Assembly: GCA_963792585.1 (NCBI GenBank)
Contig: CAWBWI010000002.1
Location: 346,160-410,159, forward strand
Origin: Candidatus Eiseniibacteriota bacterium
GTDB lineage: Bacteria > Eisenbacteria > RBG-16-71-46 > CAIMUX01 > VGJL01
Direction of reading: 5' to 3'
DNA: 64,000 nt
Position 1 is the stretch's first letter. Every line of letters begins with the position of its first letter. The notes beneath the pieces are model-generated. The model was not told the origin of the DNA, did not search any database, and worked only from the letters and a program-made list of their open reading frames with translations. Position numbers and translations under genes: made by a program. Shown piece by piece: positions 19,907 to 57,399 of the stretch.

Positions 19907-19935
19907 AAGGGCCCCGGCGAATCGCCGGGGCCCTT
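19907..19935 (-). terminator. Hairpin terminator, probably the native tRNA-fMet terminator displaced by integration (may also serve the kinase gene)
   Basis: AAGGGCCCCGGCGA-A-TCGCCGGGGCCCTT; on the minus strand it lies 5 nt after the duplicated tRNA ...ACCA end and is followed by CGTTCTT. Confidence 0.8.
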
Positions 19936-19940
19936 GAAGT

Positions 19941-19953
19941 TGGTAGCGGGGGT
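19941..19953 (+). repeat. Attachment-site core, distal copy (TGGTAGCGGGGGT)
   Basis: Identical to 57320-57332, the reverse complement of the last 13 nt of the tRNA. Confidence 0.88.
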
Positions 19954-20145
19954 CCGGTACGAGGCCCAACAGAGGAATCGGGGGAGGGAGATCGAGGTCG
20001 TAGATCTGGCGTTCGAGGCGCGGGGGACGGCGCTGCTGCCGGTGGGAGCAGCCGGGGCATAATGCCCAGCCGTGGCACATCGGTTCCTTTGGGCGCCAGG
20101 CCCTCGGGTGGCCGGCGACCGCACGTCTCGTAACGTGGGAGAGCC

Positions 20146-20733
20146 GTGAAACAAGCTACCACCCGTACCAGCTCACCACGTGGGCGGCGGCCCGAACGGG
20201 TTTCCCTGCGGGAGTACGCCCGCAGGATCGGGGTCTCCCACGTCTCGGTGATCCGCGCGATCCGCTCGGGGCGGATCTCCACGGTCGGCGGCAAGATCGA
20301 TCCTGCCGTGGCCGACCGGGAGTGGCGGGAAAACACGGATCAGAGCAAGCCGCTGAACCGGATCACCGGCCGGCCGAGGCGCCGGCGCGCACCCGATCAG
20401 CCGGCGATGCCCATGGAACTTGCCGGCGGCGGATTCGGCGTCGGAGATGGCGACGCCACTACAGCCGGCTACGCCCGGGCGCGCGCCGCCCGGGAACTGT
20501 TTCTAGCGCAGCTCGCCAAGATCGTGCTCGATGAGAGGCGCGGTATCCTCGTCCGCGCCGATGAGGTTCGGCTAGGAGCGTTCACCATGGCGCGCAAGGC
20601 CCGGGACCAGCTGATCGCGCTCCCCGAGCGCGTGGCCGCCATCCTTGCCGCCACCCAGGACCCGGCGGAGGTGCAGTGCATCCTCGAAGAGGAGATCGAG
20701 CGGGTCTGTCAGGAGATCGCGGAGGTTGGATGA
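20146..20733 (+). CDS. Terminase small-subunit-like (Nu1-like) protein, copy 1
   Basis: N-terminal HTH (SLREYARRIGVSHVSV), GKIDPAVAD, YARARAARE, RDQLIALPERVA; paralogous to 45838-46350. Confidence 0.7.
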   Translation: MKQATTRTSSPRGRRPERVSLREYARRIGVSHVSVIRAIRSGRISTVGGKIDPAVADREWRENTDQSKPLNRITGRPRRRRAPDQPAMPMELAGGGFGVGDGDATTAGYARARAARELFLAQLAKIVLDERRGILVRADEVRLGAFTMARKARDQLIALPERVAAILAATQDPAEVQCILEEEIERVCQEIAEVG

Positions 20734-23709: not shown

Positions 23710-24810
23710 CAGATGCGTACCTTGCTCGCGGGAACGCAGGTCAAGGGTCAGTGCTGCCCTGGGAGGTCGTTCACCCCGAGCGGCGGGGGGAGCAGTACCT
23801 GTTCCGGCTGCGCTGCGGGCAGGACGTTCTCCAGGGAATGGAGATCGACCTGTTCCACCCCTTCGAGGCGATTCATCGGATCACGACCCGATTTGACCCG
23901 CGCCGCGTAGAGCGGCTGCGTGAATGGCTGCTCGACCACGACACTTTTCTCCTGGGGCAGGCCCTCGGTCCTTCGGCGGTTCTCACAGTTCAGCCCGGTC
24001 GCCTCGACATCGGGCCTTGCCAGCTGGTCCAAGTCATGGGCGCCGAGTGGATGAGCCGGCGCGGCTGTTGCTCGCGGATGGCGTCGAGCTGGGCAAGACC
24101 GTCGAGGCGGGCGTGGTCATGGCCGAGCTGATCGCCGGGCGGTGCGCGCACCGAATCCTGATCTTTTCGCCGGCTGGGCCGCTCCTCGATCTGTGGCACC
24201 GCGAGATGCGCGACAGCTTCGGCCTCCGGTCCGCGGCGATCCGGGGCGCGGGGGGAGCTGCAGGAAATCCGGCGGCCCCTCGTCCTCGGAGCCAGTCCCT
24301 TCGACCATGTCTCCTCCTGCCTGACCTCCGTGGACTGCGCCAAGCAGGAGAAGGTCCTTCAAGAGCTCGAGCGGAGCGTGTGGGCCCCAGTCATCATCGA
24401 TGAGGCGCATCACTGCATGCGTCTGGGGTCGGCGGGGGACTGGGAGGACTCGCGCCGCCGTCGGCCGGTCGAGGTCCTCGCGCCTGAGCCGGATGGTCTA
24501 CTGCAGCCTCACGGCTACTCCTCATGACGGCTACGACCCGCACGTCGCATCGATCGTGGATCCGCTTGAGCCGAGCCAAGTGGAAGAGCGTGGAGTACTC
24601 CGAGGCGAGCGATACCGTGGCACGTGGTCCACCGCCTGAAGCAGCACATCAAGGACCCAGAGACCGGGCAGCCGCTCTTCAAGACCCGACAGGTCACGCC
24701 GTGCCCAGTCCCATTCGACTGGGTCTCGAGGCCTGCGTTCCCGGCCCACCAACAGGCATTCCTCACCGGCCTCGCGCCGCGCTTGCGACAGGCCGTGCGC
24801 GAGCGCCATG
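23710..24810 (+). pseudogene. Decayed SNF2-family helicase (DISARM DrmD-like), N-terminal part only
   Basis: Fragments [47 protein letters not shown] across several frames with degenerate motifs. Confidence 0.7.
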
Positions 24811-25220
24811 GAGAATTTCCTCCACCTGGCACGTCAGGGCGCCAGAGTCTCGTATTCCGGCACCCGGACGAGCGAGTGCTGCTCGACTACCCCAACGTCC
24901 GGTTCGTGCCGCTGCCGCTGGGGGAGTGCCTGCTCGAGGTGCCGATAACGCGCTCGAGCTGGCTGCCCGATCATGGGAGCGACGCCACGGGGATTGCGCC
25001 CGACCGCCCGCTCCCGCAGGATGTGGACGGCACGGAGTTCACGGACGCTGTGCGCGCTGGCCTCGTGATTGCTTATTGATCGGTGGCGCCGCGCCCCATC
25101 GTCGGTGGATCGGATGCGCCCACATCGGCCTTCGCTTCGCGACGGGCACGCTGTCTGGTTGGACGGGATTCTCTGCCTCTGTCTACATACCCGGCGGGAG
25201 CTCGAAGTGTCGGACTGGGC
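24795..25220 (+). repeat. Diverged direct-repeat copy A (degenerate 3' end of the S41 peptidase gene plus downstream DNA)
   Basis: Aligns by eye with ~26013-26433 (e.g. GACGCCACGGGGATTGCGCCCGA, CACGGAGTTCACGGACGC, GTCTACATACCCGGC). Confidence 0.85.
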
Positions 25221-25308
25221 ATCCACCCAGCGGGCACCGGCCTGTTCGGTGCCGAGCGAGGACTGCACCCGGGATCTGCTGGCGCGGCCGCACGAAAGCG
25301 AGGGGGCG

Positions 25309-26295
25309 ATGAACGGATTGGCGGATTTCGAGGCGCTGCGGGCCTGCGTCGAGAGCGACTACGCCGGCTGGGCGGACAAGACAGCCGGACGGTTGGCAGA
25401 GTTGGCCGCCCTGACCGAGCGCATCCGCGGCGAGCTGCGCGCGCCGCGCGAGCCAGCCGAGGCCACAGCGCTGCTGCGTGAGTGGGTCGCCTTCTTCGAC
25501 GACCGGCACCTGACCGTCAAGGAGACGGCGAAGATGGCCGCCTGGCGGGCGTCGCTCGAGCGCCGGGAGCAGGCGCCGTGCCTCTGCGAAGCGCGGGCAG
25601 ACACGCTCCTGCTCGTGATCCGGTCGTTCGCGTCGGAGTACCAGGAACCGCTTGAGATGCTCCTGCATGCCTGGGCGGAACGGCTGGCCGCGGCGCGCTT
25701 CCTGATCATCGACGTGCGCCACTGCGAGGGGGGGAGCGACGCGACCGGCTGGCCGCTCGTCCCCTGGCTCTACTCGGGCCCGATCGCGCGGGTGGGCTGC
25801 GACGTGCGCGTCAGCCCAGGGAACGTCGACGCGCTCCGTGAGTACGCGGGCAGCCCCGCGCTGGCGGCGGAGGCACGCACAGCGTGCGGGCAGATCGTGG
25901 CACGGATGGAGGCGGTCGGGGGAGGCTTCGTCTGCCTCGCCCCGGACGACGAGATCCGCCTGGAGGAGGTCCGGCCGCGCCCCGAGCGCGTCGCGGTCCT
26001 GATCGGCGAACGGTGCGCCAGCGCCACTGAGGAGTTCCTCCTCCTGGCTCGTCAGAGTGCCAAGGTCTCGCTCTTCGGCACCCGCACGAGCGGCTGCCTC
26101 GACTACTCCAACGTGCGCCTCGTGCCACTCCCGTCGGGGGAGCGTCTTCTCGGGGTGCCGATAACGCGTTCGCGCCGAATGCCCGATCACGGGATCGACG
26201 CCACGGGGATTGCGCCCGATCGCCCGCTCCCGCCGGATGCGGACGACACGGAGTTCACGGACGCCGTGCGCGCTGCGCTCGCGATTCCTTGTTGA
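25309..26295 (+). CDS. S41-family peptidase-like protein
   Basis: LIIDVRHCEGGS, CASATEEF, LFGTRTSGCLDYSN, GIAPD. Confidence 0.7.
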   Translation: MNGLADFEALRACVESDYAGWADKTAGRLAELAALTERIRGELRAPREPAEATALLREWVAFFDDRHLTVKETAKMAAWRASLERREQAPCLCEARADTLLLVIRSFASEYQEPLEMLLHAWAERLAAARFLIIDVRHCEGGSDATGWPLVPWLYSGPIARVGCDVRVSPGNVDALREYAGSPALAAEARTACGQIVARMEAVGGGFVCLAPDDEIRLEEVRPRPERVAVLIGERCASATEEFLLLARQSAKVSLFGTRTSGCLDYSNVRLVPLPSGERLLGVPITRSRRMPDHGIDATGIAPDRPLPPDADDTEFTDAVRAALAIPC

Positions 26296-26433
26296 CCTGG
26301 GGGGCCGCGTCCATCGTCCGGAGATCGGGTGCGCCCACAACTGCCTTCGCTTTGCGACCGGCTCGCAGACTGGCTAGACGGGGTGCTTTAGTTGTGTCTA
26401 CATACCCGGCTGAAGTTCGAGATGTCGGCTTGG
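26013..26433 (+). repeat. Diverged direct-repeat copy B
   Basis: See copy A. Confidence 0.85.
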
Positions 26434-27885: not shown

Positions 27886-29310
27886 GAAGGTGTGCCAAAC
27901 TTAGTTGGTAAATTGAAGCGGCTCCAACCCTGTGGTTTGATGGGGATTGCAAAGTCTCTCATCACCACAGAAGAAAGGAGCCGTCGATGGGCAGTGTCCT
28001 GCGTCGGGTTCGGAAGCGCAAGCGGTCCTTCGGGGAAGTCACGGTGCTGCGGCGCGAGGAGTACGAGGAGCTGGAGTTGGACGCCAAGGTGGAAGCCATC
28101 CGAGGCTTGATTCCATTGGGGTTGATGCACGTCCAGGAACTGCTGGATCAGGAAGTTATGGTCCTTGCCGGCCCGCGGCGGGCGCGGGAGGACGGGGCTC
28201 CGGGGATGCGCTACGGGAGCAACCCCGGCTCGGTCCGGCTGGGCGGACAGCGGGTGCCGATCCGGGTGCCGCGCGTTCGCACCGACCGCGGCGAGATTCC
28301 CCTTCGGGGCTACCAGGCAATGCATGATTCGGGCGAAGTGAATGACCAGTTGCTCAGGCGAGTGCTCTACGGGATTTCGTGCCGGAACTACGGGGTGGCG
28401 GCCGAGTCGATTCCGGGAGCTCTGGGCCTGTCGAGTTCCTCTGTGTCGCGGGCCTTCGTGGAGGCGAGCGCTGCGAAGCTCAAGGAGTTCCAGGAACGGG
28501 ATCTGTCGAAGGATCACTACGTGGCGCTGTTCCTGGACGGCAAGAGCTTCTCCGACTCGACGCTGGTGATCGCCCTGGGAGTGACGAGCCGCGGGGAGAA
28601 GCGATTCCTGGGGTTCGTGGAGACGGACACCGAGAACGAGAAGGTTCTCACGCCTTTCCTGCGCACGCTGCTGGAGCGTGGGCTCGACATCTCCGCGGGA
28701 CTGCTGGTGGTCCTGGACGGAGCCAAGGGGCTGCGGGCCGCGGTGAACCAGGCCTTCAAGAAGAAGTCTGTGGTCCATCGCTGCATGTGGCACAAGCGGG
28801 AAAACGTCGTCAGCTACCTTCCCAAGGGGGAGCAGGCGAGCTGGCGCCGGCGCCTGCAACGCGCCTACGACCGGCCGACCTACGCGGAGGCGAAGGCGGA
28901 GCTGATGAAGCTGCTCCGGGAGTTGGAGCAGCGTAACCAATCGGCCGCTGCGAGCCTCGCGGAAGGCATGGAGGAGACGCTCACCCTGCATCGGCTCGGG
29001 GTGTTCGCGCTTCTGGGTATGTCCTTCAAGACGACGAACTGTCTGGAGTCGGCGAACGCACTGATCGAGGAGCGGTGTGCCAAGGTGGATGCCTGGAAGA
29101 ACTCGAGTCAACGGCATCGGTGGCTTGCAGCGGCGTTGCTGGACATCGAGCCCCGGTGGCGACGGGTGCGAGGCTACCAGCATCTGCCGAAGCTCGAGGC
29201 CGCGATCGCACGAGCACTCAAGATCAAGGTCGCACCCCTCCGTGAGAAGAGGGCCGCATGAATGTTCAACACGAGCCGCCATGTTTATCAACTAAGAATG
29301 GGCTTGACTC
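27886..29310 (+). mobile_element. IS256-family insertion sequence, 1425 bp, with 8-bp target duplication GTCGCGAC
   Basis: TSD at 27878-27885 and 29311-29318; imperfect terminal IRs GA-N12-CTTAGTTG(G/A)TAAA. Confidence 0.9.
27987..29261 (+). CDS. IS256-family (mutator-type) transposase
   Basis: IRVPRVR, LFLDG, IALGVT...GEKRFLG, LDGAKGL, HRCMWHK, TTNCLES. Confidence 0.92.
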   Translation: MGSVLRRVRKRKRSFGEVTVLRREEYEELELDAKVEAIRGLIPLGLMHVQELLDQEVMVLAGPRRAREDGAPGMRYGSNPGSVRLGGQRVPIRVPRVRTDRGEIPLRGYQAMHDSGEVNDQLLRRVLYGISCRNYGVAAESIPGALGLSSSSVSRAFVEASAAKLKEFQERDLSKDHYVALFLDGKSFSDSTLVIALGVTSRGEKRFLGFVETDTENEKVLTPFLRTLLERGLDISAGLLVVLDGAKGLRAAVNQAFKKKSVVHRCMWHKRENVVSYLPKGEQASWRRRLQRAYDRPTYAEAKAELMKLLRELEQRNQSAAASLAEGMEETLTLHRLGVFALLGMSFKTTNCLESANALIEERCAKVDAWKNSSQRHRWLAAALLDIEPRWRRVRGYQHLPKLEAAIARALKIKVAPLREKRAA

Positions 29311-43982: not shown

Positions 43983-45845
43983 CTACCGCCAAGCGTTCAC
44001 CCAGTTCCTTCTGTGGGGACGCCGGAGCGGCTGTCTTGGTGCCGCCGGTTTCGGGGGACCCGCTCTCTCCGCCGTCCGCTCGGCCGCTCGCCTGACCAGC
44101 GCGGGCCAGGCCGGATTCAGGAGCTGCAAGGCGGCGAGCGCATAGACCCGGCAGTCCAACGCCTCGTTCCGGGGTCGCGTCTTGACCCACTCTCGGCGCG
44201 GGAATCCCTTGTGGTACCGGGTCATGATCTTTTCGGCCGCCAGCTGTGCGAAGTGTTCCTCGTCGAACTCCGGCCGGACCGGGAAGTGGCAGTAGCCGGG
44301 GCCCGGCTCGGTCAGCCGGAGGCGCGAGTAGATCAGCCCCTTCGCCTCGTCCACACCGACCAGGAACATCTCCACGGGGCGGCGGTTGCGTCCACTCCTA
44401 CGATGCATGGGTGAAGAGACGATGGGACGCCCGACACCCGCCATGCCCTTGATCGCGAAGATGCGTCTGGCCTGCCTCTGCCGGCAGAAATGATAGACGT
44501 TCTGGGTGTGGTGGCCCCCGGAGTCCACGCAGGCGGCGGAGACTCGCATCTTCTCGCCGGATTCGTGCGCGTAGGTCTGCTCGAAGAAGTCCGACAGCGC
44601 AATCCACACCGGCTGCTCCCCCGGGCTGCCCCACAGGACGCGATAGTCAATGGCCCAGCTCTCCTCGCCCGGTCCCCAACCTACAACCTCGAGTTCGATC
44701 CGATCGTCCTGGACGTCCACACCCGCGGTCAGGACGAGCGCGCCGGCAGGTACGTCAGCCGGGTACTTCTCCCGACGGGTGAAGAGCACGGACTCATCCA
44801 CCGTCTCGCCGAGTTCCTCCCAGGATTCACCAAGGACCGTATTCACCCAGGTCTTCAAGGCCTCCACCCCCTCTCTCTTGGCCTTGATGAAGTCCGCGGC
44901 CGCCTGGGTCCACGAGTACCACCCGGGCGGGCTGTAGAGGGCGGAGAGATGGAAGCCGACGACGCCCGGATCCCCCTTCGCGGTCGCCTCCCAACGTCCT
45001 AGCTCGAGCATGCGTCCCTTCTTGGCCTCCGGGATCTCTGCCTCGCATCCCTCACACACCATGACGGCCTTCGACGGCTCGTCCTTCGGCCATCGGATGT
45101 AGGCCCACCGGATCGGTTGGTAGAGGCCGCAGTGGGGACACGGCACGGTGAAGTACCGCTTGTCGCTTCGATCGAATGCGCGCTCGATGCGACTTGCGCC
45201 CTTGAGCTTCGGGGTGGAGACGATCAGCACCTTGCGGTTACTCGCAAACGTCGAGGTTCTCCGGATCGCAAGCTCGACGGGGTCCCCCTCGCCATCCACG
45301 TCGGTTTCGTAGGCGTCGACCTCATCGAGGAAGAGATACCGGGCCGGCATAGAGCGCAGACCCACGGCGCTGTTCGCTCCGGTGAGGACGAGAATGCCGC
45401 CCGGGAATTCCTTGGACATGATTGTGTTGCCGCTGTCCCGGCTGCGGGGTTCCTTCACCCGCTCGCTCAGAGCGGGGCAGGCCTCGATCATCGGGTCGAT
45501 CCGCTGCCTCGAGGTTCGCTTGGCCATCTCGACCGTCGGCTGCACATAGAGCATCGGGCCCGGCGCGTGGTGGATCACATACCCCAGGAAGTTGTTTCCG
45601 CACTCCGTTCCGCCGACTTGGGAGCCCTTCATCAGGACGACGAACTCCGCCTCCGACGACGGGCTCAAGCAGTCCATCACCTCTCGCAGGTACGGGGTCC
45701 GATCGGTCCGGTACGGGCCCGGCTCGACACTCGCCTGCTGGGAGAGCATGCGGAAGGAGTCGGCCCATTCGGAGACCGTGAGTTGAGGCTCCGGCTCGAA
45801 TCCGGCGGCCCATGCCTCAGCGCAGATGCGGACCGGATCACTCAT
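43983..45845 (-). CDS. Phage terminase large subunit, GpA (lambda) family
   Basis: TVSEWAD, RTPYLREVMD, KGSQVGGTE, LFLDEVDAY, STP, VPCPHC, GVDVQDDR, DSGGH, RNEALDC. Confidence 0.95.
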   Translation of the reverse strand: MSDPVRICAEAWAAGFEPEPQLTVSEWADSFRMLSQQASVEPGPYRTDRTPYLREVMDCLSPSSEAEFVVLMKGSQVGGTECGNNFLGYVIHHAPGPMLYVQPTVEMAKRTSRQRIDPMIEACPALSERVKEPRSRDSGNTIMSKEFPGGILVLTGANSAVGLRSMPARYLFLDEVDAYETDVDGEGDPVELAIRRTSTFASNRKVLIVSTPKLKGASRIERAFDRSDKRYFTVPCPHCGLYQPIRWAYIRWPKDEPSKAVMVCEGCEAEIPEAKKGRMLELGRWEATAKGDPGVVGFHLSALYSPPGWYSWTQAAADFIKAKREGVEALKTWVNTVLGESWEELGETVDESVLFTRREKYPADVPAGALVLTAGVDVQDDRIELEVVGWGPGEESWAIDYRVLWGSPGEQPVWIALSDFFEQTYAHESGEKMRVSAACVDSGGHHTQNVYHFCRQRQARRIFAIKGMAGVGRPIVSSPMHRRSGRNRRPVEMFLVGVDEAKGLIYSRLRLTEPGPGYCHFPVRPEFDEEHFAQLAAEKIMTRYHKGFPRREWVKTRPRNEALDCRVYALAALQLLNPAWPALVRRAAERTAERAGPPKPAAPRQPLRRPHRRNWVNAWR

Positions 45846-46350
45846 CGCCGAGTGCCTCCAGGGCCTTTCGGATCTCCAGGTCCAAGATCCGGCGGATCAC
45901 CCGGGCATCCGCCTCGGCTGCCAGCTGCGCGCCCACCCGGCCCGGAATCGCGAGCATCCGGTCTCGGACCTGACGGGCCTTCCTGAAGATCTCGATCTTG
46001 ATCTGGTCCACGCTGACCAAGTTTCCGTTCTTCTCCTCGAACTCGAGACGGGCAAGACGCGCCGCGAACAGCTCCCGGAAGGCTCGAGCCTCCGCATAGT
46101 CGACGCCCGATGACCGACCCGATGGCCGCTCGTCGTGGAACGCCTCCGTCGCCGCTCGGCGGGACGGACTCGTCTGGCGCTCCCACGACGCGTCCGCTTC
46201 CGCGGGATCGATCTTGCCGTGCGTGTTCTTCCGGATGCGCCCGGACTTCAGGGCCTTCTGGACTGCCAGGGGCGTGTGGCCCATCAATCCATGGAGGCGC
46301 CGATGCTCCGCGTAGGCGCGAATGCTGAGCCCTTTCGTGGGGTCCTTCAT
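45838..46350 (-). CDS. Terminase small-subunit-like protein, copy 2
   Basis: LSIRAYAEHR, GKIDPAEAD, YAEARAFRE, RDRMLAIPGRV; overlaps the terminase large subunit start. Confidence 0.78.
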   Translation of the reverse strand: MKDPTKGLSIRAYAEHRRLHGLMGHTPLAVQKALKSGRIRKNTHGKIDPAEADASWERQTSPSRRAATEAFHDERPSGRSSGVDYAEARAFRELFAARLARLEFEEKNGNLVSVDQIKIEIFRKARQVRDRMLAIPGRVGAQLAAEADARVIRRILDLEIRKALEALGDE

Positions 46351-46685
46351 GCGACCTCCCAATGCCGAGCGGTTGACCGGCGATACCAACGCCCTAACTG
46401 GCGACGTGCTGCGGAGTTGGCTTTCCGCGTGGTCGACGCATGTTTCGCCAGACGATCGCCCCCGTAACCATTGACACAACATAGCGTTACGAGATCGATG
46501 CATTCCCGCGCGCACTTCCGACCGTTTACGCACCCATCCGGGGACCCGATAACGCCATAAGCCCCAATGTGTTGCCACCTTGGGGCACTGCATTTTCCCG
46601 GTCGATTCCCCTTCACTCGGGCGCCCAGAAGCTCGTTCATGGGGATGTCGCGGGCGATAGGGCCCGCGCGAAACGGGAGACGACG

Positions 46686-46919
46686 ATGAACCAGAACACC
46701 ACCACCGACCCGAAGGCGATCCGCAAGGCCTACCGGGCATCCATGATGCTGGTGAAGGCCGCCGCCCTCTTGAGGGAAGCCGCAGAGGGATCGACCTGGG
46801 CGCAGGGTAAGGGCGACTTTCTTCGCTACGCCGTCGCGATCGATGAGTTGATCTCCTGCGACAACGGCGAAGGTGGACTCGCGGCCGCGATCACGTTCCT
46901 CTCGAACCGAAGCCGGTAA
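46686..46919 (+). CDS. Small hypothetical protein
   Basis: GGGAGA RBS before MNQNTTT; first of four co-oriented small ORFs. Confidence 0.55.
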   Translation: MNQNTTTDPKAIRKAYRASMMLVKAAALLREAAEGSTWAQGKGDFLRYAVAIDELISCDNGEGGLAAAITFLSNRSR

Positions 46920-46925
46920 CCAACC

Positions 46926-47153
46926 ATGAAGACCATCCCGACTTACCAAGAGACGATCCGCCAGATCCTCGATCGGAAGCAGATCACAGGAATCGAACCC
47001 GCCCACGTCGAGGCGTTCATGCGTGTCTACGTGGGGACGTTGGACGGACTGGATCGGAGGCAGTTCACGCGCCTCGCGATGGATGCCGTCGAAGAGATCC
47101 GTGGATGCGAACCCGAGATCGTGGCGCGCGTGGCTGCGTCCTACGGTCTGTAA
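46926..47153 (+). CDS. Small hypothetical protein
   Basis: Tightly packed in the small-ORF run. Confidence 0.55.
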   Translation: MKTIPTYQETIRQILDRKQITGIEPAHVEAFMRVYVGTLDGLDRRQFTRLAMDAVEEIRGCEPEIVARVAASYGL

Positions 47154-47165
47154 AGGAGGAAAGAG

Positions 47166-47588
47166 ATGAAGCAACGAATCGCCCGACGCAACTCGATCGC
47201 CAACCGGGAGAACGTCTCGGCGCAATCCCGCGAGGTCCGGCGCATCGAGATCACGCGAGAGCAGGTCAGTGAGCTCCTGCGGGACCACCCCGAGGCCCGC
47301 GACGATGCTCGGACCTGGGTACTGTCCGATGCCATCGCTCAGTACGAGGCCTACACCGAGAAGCTCGAGTGGCTCACCCGCAACCTCACCGACGAGGTTC
47401 GCAAGAACCAGATCGTCGGCATGCCCAGCGTCTACGACACAATCATGAGCACTTCCCTGATCCGCGATATCGCCGAGCACGCCTCGAAGTTCACCGCACT
47501 GAAGCGAGTACTCCAGACCACGTGCAGGCGAGTAGACGACCCCACGGCGACGGCCGTCGATACGTTGATCCGTACCCTGAACCCCTAA
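47166..47588 (+). CDS. Hypothetical protein
   Basis: AAAGGAGG RBS. Confidence 0.6.
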   Translation: MKQRIARRNSIANRENVSAQSREVRRIEITREQVSELLRDHPEARDDARTWVLSDAIAQYEAYTEKLEWLTRNLTDEVRKNQIVGMPSVYDTIMSTSLIRDIAEHASKFTALKRVLQTTCRRVDDPTATAVDTLIRTLNP

Positions 47589-47627
47589 CCGGCCGGGCAA
47601 AGACCCAGGCCAGAAGGAGAGCCAACC

Positions 47628-48074
47628 ATGTCCACGAAGAAGGCAAGCCAGGCCCCCAGCAAGAAGAGCGGCAAGGAGAAGCATGAGACGCCGACGACGG
47701 GTCGTGTGCATACGATCGCCAAGGCGAGAACGAGGCCCGCCACCCGATCGCCGAAGGAGGCCCCGGTCGCAGTGATCGTCTCCCCCGAGGAATCGCTCGA
47801 GACAGCAGAGGCCGCCACCAAGACTCCGGATACGGCTAGCCAACCTGCGAGGGGCGCTACGCCCGCGCCGTCGGACGGGTCGCCGGAACTCTGCGTGTTC
47901 GCCTTCCGGCTGACGCAGGCTGAGCGAGACGAGATTCACAAGGCCGCGGGACCGGGCAAGGCCTCCAGCTTCGTCAAAGCCGTGGCTCTCGCGGTCGCTC
48001 GCCTGGATGACAAGGCCATTCAAGAGGCCACCGACGAGGTCGCGGGGCGCGTCAACGCAGCCCACTGCAAGTAG
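47628..48074 (+). CDS. Hypothetical protein, possible ribbon-helix-helix DNA-binding C-terminus
   Basis: AAGGAG RBS; LCVFAFRLTQAERDEIHKAAG...SSFVK. Confidence 0.55.
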   Translation: MSTKKASQAPSKKSGKEKHETPTTGRVHTIAKARTRPATRSPKEAPVAVIVSPEESLETAEAATKTPDTASQPARGATPAPSDGSPELCVFAFRLTQAERDEIHKAAGPGKASSFVKAVALAVARLDDKAIQEATDEVAGRVNAAHCK

Positions 48075-48146
48075 ACAGGGCCTCACCCCCGACGAGCAGC
48101 CCGACGCGCAGGCAGCGGGTCTCGTCGCTCCTGGAGACATCACCAC

Positions 48147-49685
48147 CTACGCCTCCAACCTCGCCTTCTGGCCCGTGAAAACCTCGAATCGCTGGACGAT
48201 CACGTCGCAGTAGGCGGGTCGATCTCCATCAGGAACGCCGCCGCCCGGTCTGCTCCGCACCGATCAGCGTCGATCCGCTGCCGCCGAACAGGTCGAGGAC
48301 GTTCTCGCCAGGACGACTGAGTAGGTCATCGCACGCACGGCGAGCTCGACAGGCTTCTCGGTCAGGTGCACCATGCTCTGCGGGTTGATCTTCTTGACCG
48401 CCCACACGTCGGTGGCGTTGTTGGATCTCAGGTGTGAAGTAGTGCGCGGCGCCTTCCTTCCAGCCGTAGAAACACCACTCGTGGTTGCCCATGAAGTCCT
48501 TCCGGGTGAGCACCGGATGCTCCTTGACCCAGATGATCGCCTGGGAGAAGTAGAGGCTGCTGGCCTTGAGCGCCGGCGGGTAGTTCGCGCAGTTTGCGTA
48601 GCCGCCCCAGATGTAGAACGAGCGCCCGGGCTCGAGGACGCGCGCCATGTTCCCGAACCACGCGAGGAGCATCCGCTCGAAGTCCTCGTCGGTGACGAAG
48701 TCGTTCTCGAGCGGCCGATCCTTCGGGCGCATCTTGCCGGGTGTTGGGGACCGCGGCACCTGGTCGCCGCGCGAGGTCGAGCGCCTGGTGGTGGAGCATC
48801 TTCTGCTCGCCGAACGAGCGACAGACCGGCGGCGATCGCGTTGTTGGACCGCGGCTCGACCTTCACGTTGTAGGGCGGATCGGTGTTCACGAGGTGGATC
48901 GGGGCGCCGGCGAGCAGCCGGTCGACGTCCTCGGGCTTCGATGAGTCACCGCAGAGCAACCGGTGCTCGCCGAGGATCCACAGGTCGCCCGGGCGGGTCT
49001 TCGGATCGTCGGGCGGCAGGGGGACGCTATCCGGATCCACCTCGCCCGCGATCCCGTGAATCCCTGCGCCGAGGAATCCCTCGAGCTCCTCATCACTGAA
49101 CCCCAGGACCCTCAGGGAGAAGTCGTCGTCATAGAGCGCGCGAAGCTCCTCGGCGAGCAGGGCCTTATCCCAGGTCGCCCGCTCGGCCAGGCGATTGTCC
49201 GCGATGACGTATGCACGACGCTGCGCCGGCGTGAGGTGGTCCAGGACCAGGACGGGCACCATGGTCAGCTCCAGCTCGCGCGCGGCGAGGAGACGGCCGT
49301 GGCCGGCAATGATCCCCGCATCCGTCGCGACCAGGACCGGGTTCACGAACCCGAACTCGATGATGGACGCGGCGATCTCGGTCACCTGGTCCCGCGAGTG
49401 CATCCGGGGATTCCGCTCGTACGGCCGGAGCTTCTCGATCGGCCAGAGCTGGATGGAGCGATCGGACGGGCCCTTGGGGATGCCCGATCTCTGCGACTCC
49501 ACGGGGGCACCCACGCTCGCGTCCGCGGGGTGACCCGCATCTGTGTTACCCGCGGCCTCGGAATCGATCGACACCGGCGCGCCTGGACGTTGCTCGTGCG
49601 GACGCGCGGGGCCTGCCCGACGCGGCTTTGCGGACGTCTTGGCGGTGGTGGATCGGGAATGCTTGCGTGTCTCTGTGTTACTCAT
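48147..49685 (-). CDS. ParB N-terminal domain + DNA methyltransferase, frameshifted in the 3' half (probably indel errors)
   Basis: PYERNPR, EFGFVNPV, IIAGHGR, IADNR, HRLLCGDS, TDPPYNV, HLTEKP, VLDLFGGSGSTL, MEIDPPYCDVI. Confidence 0.88.
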
Positions 49686-52189: not shown

Positions 52190-53311
52190 ATGACACGCAC
52201 TTCAACGCCAGAGATCCCCGCTTGGACGAATTCATACGTCCGAGCTGCACTCATGGCGGAGATCGGGCGACTCAGGGGGGTCGCGGCTGGCCGAGCGTGT
52301 GCCACGTTCCGCGCGGCGGCCGCGGTCGGCGGGTTCGTGGCTGCCGGGGAGATCGAGCAGGCGGCAGCCGAGAGGCTTCTCCTAACGGCCGCCACGGAGA
52401 CCGGCCTTCCGGAACGCGAGGCGATCGGCCACATCCGGCGGGGGATCCGTCAGGGAGGGTTGACCCCGCGTCATGTTCCCGGTGCGCGGGTGAGTGACTA
52501 CTCCTTCCCCCTACCGGCCCAGCGGACCTCGACCGCCGCGGGCGCCCCAGCAGGTCTCGCTGAGCCGCTCGATCGCCCACCCAGGGCAGAGGTCGAAGCG
52601 CTTTGGTCCTCATGCATGCCCGTCGGCTCCGATCCCGAGGTTGCGTGGTGGTTTTGTTACCGTTACCACCCATCCGGAGAGCATCAAACGACCCCCGGAG
52701 CCCAGCTTGGAAATGACGAGAGGTCTTGTTACCGTTACCGCCCCTTATTGATTGTCCAGCGCATCGAACTCTGGGACCTGGCCAGGGCAATCCCTGCCAA
52801 CCTCGCCCTGCCACGCTGGGCCTGGTCCCGAGGCGGGTCCTGGACTCGGACCGGACACCGGATCGTCTCTCGGCTCTGGAACCACGCCGGCGAGTGCGTG
52901 TCCCTCCGCGTGCGGTGTGTTGACCCCGCCGTGACGCCCAAGTCCCTCGCCCCTTCCGGGTTCTCCGTGAAGGGACTCGTTCTCGCCGATCCCCTCGGGG
53001 TCCAGCTTCTCTCTGGGGTCGTCCCGGACTGGTGGGAACCTCGCGAGATCGTCGTTTCCGAGGGAGAAGTGGATTGGATGACCTGGGGGGCGCGGCAGCG
53101 CGAAGCCGAGGGGCAGGGCCCGGCCTGCTTCGGTGTCGAGACCGGCGCATGGTCGCAGAGGATCGCAGATCGCCTGCCCAACGGCTGCGCGGTCGTGCTT
53201 CGAACCCATCACGACGAGCCAGGGGAACGATACGCAGAGCAGATCATCAAGACGCTCCGCGGACGATGCCGCCTCTTCCGCAGCCTGCCGGAAGGGGAGG
53301 CGAGACGATGA
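52190..53311 (+). CDS. Primase-like protein (TOPRIM-like C-terminus)
   Basis: VVSEGEVDW...HHDEPGERYA; overlaps the DUF3987 gene; RBS GAGGAGG. Confidence 0.55.
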   Translation: MTRTSTPEIPAWTNSYVRAALMAEIGRLRGVAAGRACATFRAAAAVGGFVAAGEIEQAAAERLLLTAATETGLPEREAIGHIRRGIRQGGLTPRHVPGARVSDYSFPLPAQRTSTAAGAPAGLAEPLDRPPRAEVEALWSSCMPVGSDPEVAWWFCYRYHPSGEHQTTPGAQLGNDERSCYRYRPLLIVQRIELWDLARAIPANLALPRWAWSRGGSWTRTGHRIVSRLWNHAGECVSLRVRCVDPAVTPKSLAPSGFSVKGLVLADPLGVQLLSGVVPDWWEPREIVVSEGEVDWMTWGARQREAEGQGPACFGVETGAWSQRIADRLPNGCAVVLRTHHDEPGERYAEQIIKTLRGRCRLFRSLPEGEARR

Positions 53312-54960
53312 GGGACGACAACGATCGCCTGCGTGCTTGCACTCTACCGAGCGATCCTCTCGCCGACGCAGTTCCGATCGAGGAGACTGCCCCTGAGTGT
53401 CATCCCGAGGCACCCGAGTACAGGCCGTTCCCAATCGACGTGCTGCCGGAGCCGGTCCGTACTTTCGTAACCGAGGCGGCGGGTGCCATTGGATGCGATC
53501 TGGCATACGTTGCGCTCTGCGCTCTGGCGGGCCTCGCCGCATCGATCGGAAACACGCGGAGGATCAAGCTCAAGGGGAGCTGGTGCGAGCCGTCCGTCCT
53601 GTGGACGGCGATCGTCGGAGAGTCAGGCACTCTGAAGAGCCCAGCCCTCGACGTCGCACTCGCACCGCTTCGGCACCTTCAGGCCAAAGCGATCGATCGG
53701 TATCGGATCGAAAAGAAGGCCCACGACGAGAAGGTTGAGCGTTACCTCCAGTCCAACCGCCGGCGCGAGAGACGCATTCTTGGCGGGGGGGAGCCGCGTC
53801 CCGATGCGCCTATAGCCTGGAGGCTCCTCTGCTCGGACATTACCGTTGAGGCCCTCGCGATCCTTCTTCAGAACGCTCCCCGCGGTCTACTTCTTGTTCG
53901 TGATGAACTGTCAGGATGGATCAAGGGCTTCGACCAGTACAAGAAGGGTCAAGGATCCGACGCCCCCCACTTTCTGGGCATGCATCGAGCGGGAGATCTC
54001 CTGATTGATCGCAAGATCAAGAGTGAGCTCATCTACATCCCGCGCGCAGCAGTTTCGGTCACCGGCGGCATTCAGCCCAGGATCCTCAAGCGCACCTTGG
54101 GGGCGGAGCACCTGGACAACGGCCTTGCAGCTCGCCTGCTCCTTGCCATGCCCCCGCGTCTTCCGAAGCACTGGACCGATCAGGAAATCTCACCGTCAAT
54201 CACGACCTGCCTCTCCGACCTGTACGGCCGCCTGCTCGAACTTGATCTCATTGTCAATTCTGGAGGGGAAACGGTGCCGGTCGACCTTCCGCTAACCGCG
54301 AGTGGGAGAGATGCCTGGATTCAGTTCTTCAACCGGCATGGGGTTGAACAGGCTCGACGAGAAGGTGATCTCGCCGCGGCTTTCTCCAAGTTGGAGGGCT
54401 ATTGCGCGCGGTTCGCGCTGGTCATCCATCTAATTCGCTGTGAGGCCGGAGACTTGACGCTCGAGACGAGGGAGGCGGTCGACAGCACGAGCATCGAGGC
54501 CGGTGTGACGCTGACATCTTGGTTCGCTTACGAGACGGAGCGCATCTACGTCGCGCTTGGCATCACTTCTGCAGTCTCGTCACCTTCGAAGCTGCAGGAG
54601 ATCATCCGCCGGCACGGTGGTCGCATTTCAGTACGGGACCTCATGCACGCAACCCGCCAGTACCGAGACTCTTCCGAGAGAGCCCATGCCGCACTTCAGC
54701 AGCTTGTCGATGGAGGTTTTGGCACTTGGGTTCATTCCAGTCCAAGGCAGGGAGGCAGACCTAGCGAGGTGTTCGAGCTCACCCTGGAGGTTGGTAACAC
54801 TGGTAACGGTAACGAAACCCTCCCTCGTGAGAATGCGGCACCGCGCCGAACTAGCGATACGACAATAGGTTACAGCGAACATCAGGAGAGCGCCGGCGAC
54901 AAGCAGGCCGGTAACACAAACCCCGGTTCGGATACCGGAGCGGAGGATTTGCTGCTATGA
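53308..54960 (+). CDS. DUF3987/YfjI-family replication ATPase/helicase
   Basis: FPIDVLP, IVGESGTLKSPA, DITVEAL, RDELSGW, GGIQP, GLAARLL. Confidence 0.85.
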   Translation: MRDDNDRLRACTLPSDPLADAVPIEETAPECHPEAPEYRPFPIDVLPEPVRTFVTEAAGAIGCDLAYVALCALAGLAASIGNTRRIKLKGSWCEPSVLWTAIVGESGTLKSPALDVALAPLRHLQAKAIDRYRIEKKAHDEKVERYLQSNRRRERRILGGGEPRPDAPIAWRLLCSDITVEALAILLQNAPRGLLLVRDELSGWIKGFDQYKKGQGSDAPHFLGMHRAGDLLIDRKIKSELIYIPRAAVSVTGGIQPRILKRTLGAEHLDNGLAARLLLAMPPRLPKHWTDQEISPSITTCLSDLYGRLLELDLIVNSGGETVPVDLPLTASGRDAWIQFFNRHGVEQARREGDLAAAFSKLEGYCARFALVIHLIRCEAGDLTLETREAVDSTSIEAGVTLTSWFAYETERIYVALGITSAVSSPSKLQEIIRRHGGRISVRDLMHATRQYRDSSERAHAALQQLVDGGFGTWVHSSPRQGGRPSEVFELTLEVGNTGNGNETLPRENAAPRRTSDTTIGYSEHQESAGDKQAGNTNPGSDTGAEDLLL

Positions 54961-55253
54961 CTGAGTCCCAGGTTCCAATTTCCGAGGTTCGAATTCGGCC
55001 GGTCCCGAATGGAAACGACGGTTTGATCGCATTCGCCTCGTGCCGGTACGGAAACGTCCTACTGAACGATCTGGCCGTCCGGAAGGACGAGTCGGGTCGC
55101 CTGTTCTTGACCTACCCGCGGAAGCTCGCGTCCAACGGACGGCCGCATCCGCTCCACCACCCGATCGACCGCGAGACTGCCGACCAGTTCGAGGCGGCGG
55201 TCCTCGGCCCGCTCCGCAGTCTCATGGGCGGCGGGGAAGGGTCCAATAGCTGA
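54957..55253 (+). CDS. SpoVG-like nucleic-acid-binding protein
   Basis: ISEVRIRP, LIAFASC, LLNDLAV, LFLTYP, HPIDRETA. Confidence 0.7.
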   Translation: MTESQVPISEVRIRPVPNGNDGLIAFASCRYGNVLLNDLAVRKDESGRLFLTYPRKLASNGRPHPLHHPIDRETADQFEAAVLGPLRSLMGGGEGSNS

Positions 55254-55494
55254 TGCAGGCGGTGCCGGCGCCCGACGCGGTCCTCGATCGGCCCCGGCGC
55301 GCCGCTGCCATCGTCGAGAATCCGCGCATCGTCGTGGTCGAGAGCCCCGACACGGCCGATCCCGACGCCGTCCGAGGCGCCCTCGAACTGCTGGTGAAGT
55401 GGGTTGTACGGGCCCACCAAGGCCGCGAGCAAGCCATGGGCGAATCCACGCCGACTGCAGCTATCGCGGACGAAGACTCTGGAGATTCGACTTG

Positions 55495-55495
<1 letters not shown>
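55253..55495 (+). CDS. Small hypothetical protein coupled to the recombinase
   Basis: TGATG overlaps at both ends. Confidence 0.55.

Positions 55496-57399
<1,904 letters not shown>

Follow-up and report, generated by a model that had tools for sequence, protein, structure and literature searches.

Attachment sites that lie inside the gene of their own recombinase are already published for large serine integrases, namely DsiB and the rumA ICE enzymes, and for phage Mx8. In the ssrA islands of Dehalococcoides, as set out in the sections on dsiB in the original report (McMurdie et al., 2011; PMC3146451), the 3' end of the large serine recombinase gene crosses the att site and lies antisense to the 3' terminus of the tRNA-like target, the islands stand in tandem arrays, and full function is suggested only on the circle or beside an adjacent island. 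The serine integrases of streptococcal rumA ICEs also have att inside the integrase gene, and the integrase sections of Ambroset et al. describe an exchange of the C-terminus upon integration, with a suggested functional difference (Ambroset et al., 2016; PMC4701971). In Myxococcus phage Mx8, as cited in passages of two other papers (PMC4701971; PMC4383910), attP lies inside int and integration shortens the C-terminus, the modified form being less active.

How serine integrases control direction is an active question. In the structural sections of the sources that follow, prediction has most RDFs (directionality factors) anchor themselves by contributing a strand to the DBD2 sheet (Shin et al., 2025; PMC12286644), cryo-EM shows that RDFs redirect the coiled coil through its hinges (PMC11722253; phiC31 preprint 10.1101/2025.05.02.651858), and DBD2 binding alone is reported as insufficient for RDF action (PMC11795197). 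For SCCmec recombinases it is noted that strands at the C-terminus could obstruct the site of the RDF; whether such extra DBD2 strands do so, or change directionality, was left open in 2025 in the corresponding section (PMC12286644). The present study adds a selection test on a swapped integrase tail with controls, a docking prediction of this tail on the enzyme's own zinc domain, and an RDF candidate.

Attachment cores, island and the two integrase endings

The window, by which we mean the whole stretch of 64,000 nucleotides, encodes an integrase with Resolvase, Recombinase and Zn ribbon domains (PF00239, E 1e-24; PF07508; PF13408) on the plus strand at 55495-57363 (622 aa in its integrated form). 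The serine catalytic domain has the YxRxS motif as YLRRS, and the Recombinase and zinc-ribbon domains are accompanied by an inserted coiled coil, with helices at 476-533 in the model. A 13-mer at 19941-19953 (+) recurs at 57320-57332 (+); it is the longest word common to both regions, has exactly two copies in the 5.4-Mb assembly, which is 84% complete, and a second copy in 64 kb on one strand is expected by chance 0.002 times. Reverse-complemented, this core gives the final 13 nt of a tRNA-Met(CAT) gene at 57320-57396 (-), whose 3' end is restored by the island's core. This tRNA is mismatched at T1:T72, and its anticodon stem is closed by three G-C pairs; these are marks of an initiator tRNA. 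A terminator-like hairpin at 19907-19935 (-), the one site found there against a mean of 0.6 in shuffles, sits on the host side 5 nt past the left core, that is, past the displaced tRNA 3' end and on the tRNA strand, and is likely the tRNA's original terminator. Four same-family genomes hold the tRNA-fMet end; two show the hairpin without an integrase end (L221, L222) and two show an integrase 3' end. By the core repeat, the tRNA end and the hairpin, the locus is an island inserted at the 3' end of tRNA-fMet, with the left core as the host/element junction. No empty site was found that shared synteny of the left kinase gene, and no sigma-70 promoter matched near the left or right junction.

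The geometry of the sites agrees with the domain content. The arms of the consensus attP mirror each other around a central GG (core positions 11-12) in 9 of 11 bases and the window's own att arms do so in 7 of 11, giving short att sites with inverted symmetry around an asymmetric central dinucleotide, the cut site being placed by this same symmetry with a predicted GG crossover at 19951-19952. By domains and site geometry the enzyme is a large serine recombinase, and its unidirectional, RDF-reversed recombination is putative. In some relatives (L005, L026, L027, L033) the arm restores the tRNA end without an encoded CCA, so that the shared core there is only about 10 bp. After other integrases a partial tRNA T-arm look-alike is followed by unrelated DNA (L001, L020, L025, L114, L196, P0013, P0015, P0027, P0043), possibly secondary sites or fragments from other islands.

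The right core lies within the integrase ORF as codons V-A-G-V, and the integrated form runs through it to end ...SSFEMVAGV-GFEPTTFGL, with its stop at 57361-57363. The nine last residues and the stop (57334-57363, +) are read antisense to the tRNA T-arm and anticodon loop, the stop itself coming from the antisense anticodon loop, and the nine residues are predicted to be disordered. Joining the two cores in silico keeps the frame and replaces this end by a 35-residue tail with the stop TAA at 20060-20062, giving a predicted circle form of 648 aa. The stored 3' end occupies 19955-20062 (+), its first nine or so codons doubling as the attP arm, and its conserved part (residues 11-31; 19985-20047, +) is predicted to form a beta-hairpin that docks on the zinc domain. 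An earlier note on this DNA had placed the att site inside the serine integrase gene and had described both endings as given above; these points stand, as does its statement that the integrated integrase would be transcribed antisense to the initiator tRNA, which follows from the overlap of the two genes. Like the integrase genes of the Mx8, DsiB and rumA type, which are split by their own attP, the locus thus has an att core in its ORF and, across the element, a second possible 3' end in the same frame. It is not a suicidal integrase of the SSV type: the enzyme belongs to the serine family and all its domains stay in the integrated ORF. Another locus (L017), with both ends seen, has the same att-in-gene layout, though just a 3' remnant of its integrase is left. 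Within the island, the minus strand has its first terminator-like site at 54920-54941 (one found; mean 1.9 in shuffles), so that tRNA read-through antisense to the integrase operon is possible but unsupported.

The two cores enclose 37.4 kb. Directly after the tail stands a terminase-small-subunit-like gene (20146-20733, +; phrog_57, E 4e-23); domain matches further identify a gpA-type terminase large subunit, a small subunit and a ParB/methyltransferase module (43983-49685, -) and primase-like and DUF3987/helicase-like genes (52190-54960, +). The ORFs scanned, which are part of the island's ORFs, gave no match to a capsid, portal or tail family; with terminase genes present, the element looks like a defective or satellite-like phage island. 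The interval 20791-43915 holds defence-type cargo (LA2681-like HEPN, GmrSD, RiboL-PSP/MAE_28990 HEPN, MmeI-type restriction-modification and DUF4209) together with a weak Apea-like HEPN match. There is a mutator transposase at 27987-29261 and a direct repeat of 428 bp (24794-25221 and 26012-26433, 81% identity). In genome G000, ARAGORN also called a tRNA-Ile (TAT anticodon) and a tRNA-SeC, at C3 75042-75118 and C1 683832-683927. The two terminase-small-subunit-like genes, 20146-20733 (+) and 45838-46740 (-), stand in opposite orientation and are 35% alike, and the island may be composite. This low likeness would suit a reading in which the left core belongs to another, older element; that may be so, but the whole assembly has just two cores, and among close integrases no non-tRNA partner is commoner than the window's type of tail (4 of 42, level with partial tRNA-like ends).

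Coding constraint on the tail and its natural carriers

The case for a coding tail depends on relatives. The codon-like GC3 bias put forward in the earlier note is correct as a value (0.80, against 0.82 in the integrase) but fails as coding evidence, as GC1 of the tail is also 0.80. Since, in addition, an open frame of 35 codons has a chance of about 46% at the local composition and a second frame stays open longer, the single-locus argument from GC3 and frame length is weak and was rejected. At the DNA level the opening three codons of the tail mirror the core, forming a palindrome around the central GG; because the R-Y codons mirror the V-A-G core, 'RY' carries no protein information. Conservation of 'RYE' was likewise rejected as protein evidence, being mirrored from the core and part of the sampling patterns that selected for it, and for this reason the main tests exclude codons 1-9. 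Core copies were collected by pattern scans (50 stretches in genome contigs, 2 viral, plus further scans); the first genome and viral scans preselected the first three tail codons and two later scans did not. Clustering of 142 unique non-tRNA core copies, on the first 28 nt only, gave five clusters with at least four members.

Conservative amino-acid changes prevailed in 4 of 4 tail families and not in a control cluster that has no conserved tail (n=7; pN/pS 1.00). In the window's own family (n=15), codons 10-30 had a pN/pS of 0.71 (32 of 1000 column shuffles as low) and a BLOSUM loss of -3.57 versus -5.49 (0 of 1000 shuffles as good), and the other families had a pN/pS of 0.54 (n=16; 2 of 1000 as low), 0.72 (n=20; 0 of 1000) and 0.76 (n=8; 138 of 1000, with 6 of 1000 by BLOSUM), all shuffle counts that overstate significance because family members are related. 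Some statistics went against this: codons 10-28 of the window family were not significant (97 of 1000 shuffles), 14 copies including two outliers gave 0.88 (92 of 300), and a single-linkage cluster that merged families gave 1.03. For comparison, pN/pS was 0.13 in the integrase core and 0.69 in the integrase linker. Beyond the arm, the invariant columns of a hand-picked alignment (n=14) fall at codon positions 1-2 in 8 of 8 cases, DNA likeness among relatives drops to background past the tail stop, and the stop position is fixed in the family of 16, with 35 codons in 11 of them. The claim that the tail is conserved as coding sequence is thus borne out in relatives through the conservative changes and the placement of invariant columns. 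As judged from these alignments, the tail is coding but loosely constrained, much like the integrase linker and far more weakly than the integrase core. Two further tail families are unrelated to the window's in sequence (L150, L175-L177, L180-L205; L152, L171, L172 and others).

Integrases that naturally end in such tails exist. The tRNA peptide is the ending of 28 of 42 close integrases; four have a window-type tail, four a partial tRNA-like end and six some other end. The search proposed in the earlier note, for recombinases with VAG(V/A)RYE-type tails, did yield natural examples (the four of 42). The tRNA peptide ends 66 of all 93 integrase matches, in a search whose query itself included that peptide. 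A profile of the tail matched 115 proteins at E <= 0.001, a few of which are repeat artefacts; for 129 proteins examined, the junction could be parsed in 96, and a recombinase C-terminus precedes it in 28 of these. The family appears to target tRNA genes, in several phyla. Cultured phages carry only distant integrases (<60% identity), and viral contigs gave one integrase locus and two pattern loci.

Long forms are not confined to circles, as an intact integrase joined to a window-type tail in mid-contig (G029) and the junctions in arrays show. In the former genome a different integrase sits at the tRNA, and we rejected the idea that the two are circle and prophage of one element, their integrase ends being 83% alike. 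Four cores follow one another in tandem on one contig (G207:C8; L216-L218), where, among the stretches examined, the tRNA-proximal unit alone showed an intact integrase. Arrays have one and the same integrase end in front of tails from three different families, and chimeric junctions are common in them. We infer that a new island, on inserting, passes its tail to the integrase of the previous island, as McMurdie et al. suggested, in their passage on the neighbouring island, for dsiB (PMC3146451). There are also arrays of 3-8 kb cassettes (L209-L215; G214, G217, G219, G220, G206, G210), each beginning with core and tail; cassettes in L209-L215 often end in a GC hairpin instead of an integrase, several of these genomes hold 5-10 core copies, and L209-L215 look like a cassette array fed by one integrase. 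No sequencing run held half or more of the words of the window DNA, and there was no RNA run among those listed. In the contigs of four runs, relatives run into the tRNA and the matches listed include no loose end into the tail, which is neutral for the circle.

Predicted docking of the tail and control of direction

An AlphaFold2 model of a natural long form (P0028; 97 alignment rows), whose best fold matches are the SPbeta, phiC31 and Bxb1 integrases, has a disordered linker at 586-609 across the att-encoded residues, followed by strands at 614-623 and 626-629 with block pLDDT of 88-95. The window's integrated form (38 rows) is folded confidently to residue 592 and disordered over 596-622 (pLDDT <50); given the difference in rows, the overall scores of the two models are not comparable. 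When the window's tail was modelled by ESMFold2 with the window's own residues 372-613, the complex scored 0.63, versus 0.00 for the best control, with runs agreeing in at least 83% of contacts and partner pLDDT of at least 62. The mark applied to such scores was reached by 116 of 157 solved pairs and 2 of 215 mismatched pairs, though the docked chains here are the two parts of one split gene, and such pairs tend to pass, and strand addition to DBD2 could be remembered by the predictor from RDF complexes. The predicted contacts fall on zinc-domain strands 586-595, 577-583 and 430-444; the ESMFold2 models pair residues 14-20 of the tail with the last strand (586-592) and have its second strand touch 430-444. 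These models support a beta-hairpin on the edge strand of the zinc-domain (DBD2) sheet. Residues 454-475, which connect the zinc domain to the coiled coil, receive no confident contact; they form a segment of the kind that the SPbeta RDF must restrain according to the structural section of its report (PMC11722253). Placed at the anchor position but lacking confident 454-475 contacts, the tail would fit a blocker better than a mimic.

A candidate RDF is encoded beside the integrase. A conserved ORF of 80 codons (55253-55495, +) has a stop that overlaps the integrase ATG (TGATG), and follows a SpoVG-like ORF of 98 aa (54957-55253, +; Pfam E 1e-6, just below the curated cut-off). The last four genes, DUF3987, SpoVG-like ORF, 80-codon ORF and integrase, overlap stop to start, and the SpoVG-like and 80-codon ORFs recur upstream of related integrases. 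Alignment of 15 sequences gives the 80-codon product a conserved strand-like then helix-like core; it matched no known family, its Atlas matches all being <0.8 and without names, and it had no profile likeness to the tail.

The mechanism we favour, with a probability of about 0.45, is that the circle form masks the RDF anchor and integration unmasks it. The integrase gene spans its own att site, and the excised circle would encode the conserved 35-residue tail, which is predicted to turn back and add beta-strands to the zinc domain and would cover a site that, by analogy, overlaps that of the RDF. The free form would then be RDF-resistant and set to integrate, and integration, in stripping the tail and leaving a copy that ends in nine tRNA-derived residues, would let an RDF switch the chromosomal form to excision; this RDF may be the 80-aa protein, whose ORF lies immediately upstream in translational coupling. 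On the docking models a directionality role for the tail is plausible. The wider proposal, that tRNA-fMet serine integrases, as a widespread class, set their own direction by recombination, the tail capping the anchor, integration uncapping it and so licensing the co-translated 80-aa RDF, with the islands of an array locking their predecessors' integrases against excision by giving them their tails, is doubtful.

The same docking model would fit a switch of activity as in Mx8, the hairpin completing or stabilising the zinc domain so that the circle form is fully active and the weakened integrated form keeps the island quiet. The lower activity of the modified Mx8 integrase, as cited in PMC4701971, and the proposal of McMurdie et al., in their discussion of dsiB, that the enzyme is fully functional only on the circle or beside a neighbouring island (PMC3146451) lend this weight. 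The short form, however, keeps all canonical elements of a large serine recombinase, with a confident fold to residue 592, and excision still needs a catalyst; we consider this reading unlikely. That the tail has no regulatory role, being a dispensable ancestral gene end past attP whose conservation is partly at the DNA level, both forms behaving alike, would accord with its pN/pS of only 0.54-0.76, with the joining of unrelated tail families to one integrase end in arrays and with the 28 of 42 close integrases that end in the tRNA peptide. It is made improbable by the conservative changes in all four tail families and their absence from the control cluster, by the stop at 35 codons in 11 of 16 members of one family and by the specific docking predicted.

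The earlier note had offered the two isoforms as a switch of directionality or of stability. The first half remains structurally plausible through docking at the DBD2 sheet; the second, a degron as in phage BPs with a short-lived long form carrying a C-terminal proteolysis tag, is weak and in our view distinctly improbable. Only 8 of 96 tails end in AA, LA or VA (15 end in GA), the stop wanders, tail length ranging from 11 to 103 residues, and conservation lies inside the tail, not at its terminus. In favour of a degron, Ala is terminal in 31 of 96 tails, the background being 0.18 (p 4e-4, for sequences that are not independent), five of the eight members of another tail family end in AA and the host tmRNA tag ends in LAA. 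Very improbable, finally, is a built-in RDF, in which the tail mimics the directionality factor and the long form favours excision and blocks re-integration: the incoming circle makes only the long form, yet must integrate, the tail has no confident contacts at the coiled-coil-proximal segment, and, in the section concerned, DBD2 binding alone is reported as insufficient (PMC11795197). Integrase-RDF fusions through a C-terminal linker do work, as described in parts of the phiC31 preprint (10.1101/2025.05.02.651858) and of PMC12286644, and the tail follows a flexible linker of 24 residues and binds the DBD2 sheet in models.

Implications and comparison with known systems

A natural pair of isoforms with and without the extra strands on one enzyme, next to an RDF candidate, makes the strand-blocking question directly testable. 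If masking of the anchor by the tail is correct, what databases list for this integrase family is for the most part the clipped form (28 of 42 close relatives), which matters for mining integrases as tools; if the isoforms behave alike, the locus is one more island with att in a gene. Among the papers listed by full-text searches, none has a title or abstract opening on serine integrases that target tRNA-fMet and swap a conserved tail, subscription papers and LSR-catalogue supplements lying outside this scope; the portions of a 2025 TIGER note considered here do not address them (PMC12424338), and a 2015 resource stated that tRNA genes were not a known target of serine integrases (PMC4383910).

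Of the precedents named in the earlier note, SSV-type integrases and mycobacteriophage repressors, as in phage BPs, do share an attP inside a gene whose product is changed by integration, but DsiB, the rumA ICE integrases and Mx8 are closer. In the sections describing them, SSV-type enzymes are tyrosine integrases that are split into two pieces (PMC7253208), and the gene concerned in the integration-dependent immunity of BPs is a repressor with an ssrA-like tag (PMC4557955). Mx8 also differs, as cited in PMC4701971 and PMC4383910, in that its tyrosine recombinase goes from 112 to 13 residues at this end, by another chemistry and with no coiled-coil/RDF mechanism. The rumA ICEs target a protein gene, swap ends reciprocally with rumA and change the frame, and the integrase sections of that study involve no tRNA and no structural analysis (PMC4701971). 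The islands of DsiB have a tmRNA as target and a second serine recombinase, DsiA; the dsiB sections call the ends divergent, and a conserved tail, a selection test and a structural role are absent from them (PMC3146451). Finally, the SCCmec Ccr recombinases share C-terminal strands on DBD2 (Shin et al., 2025); as described in that part of the work these strands are permanent, whereas the integrase studied here would gain and lose them by recombination (PMC12286644).
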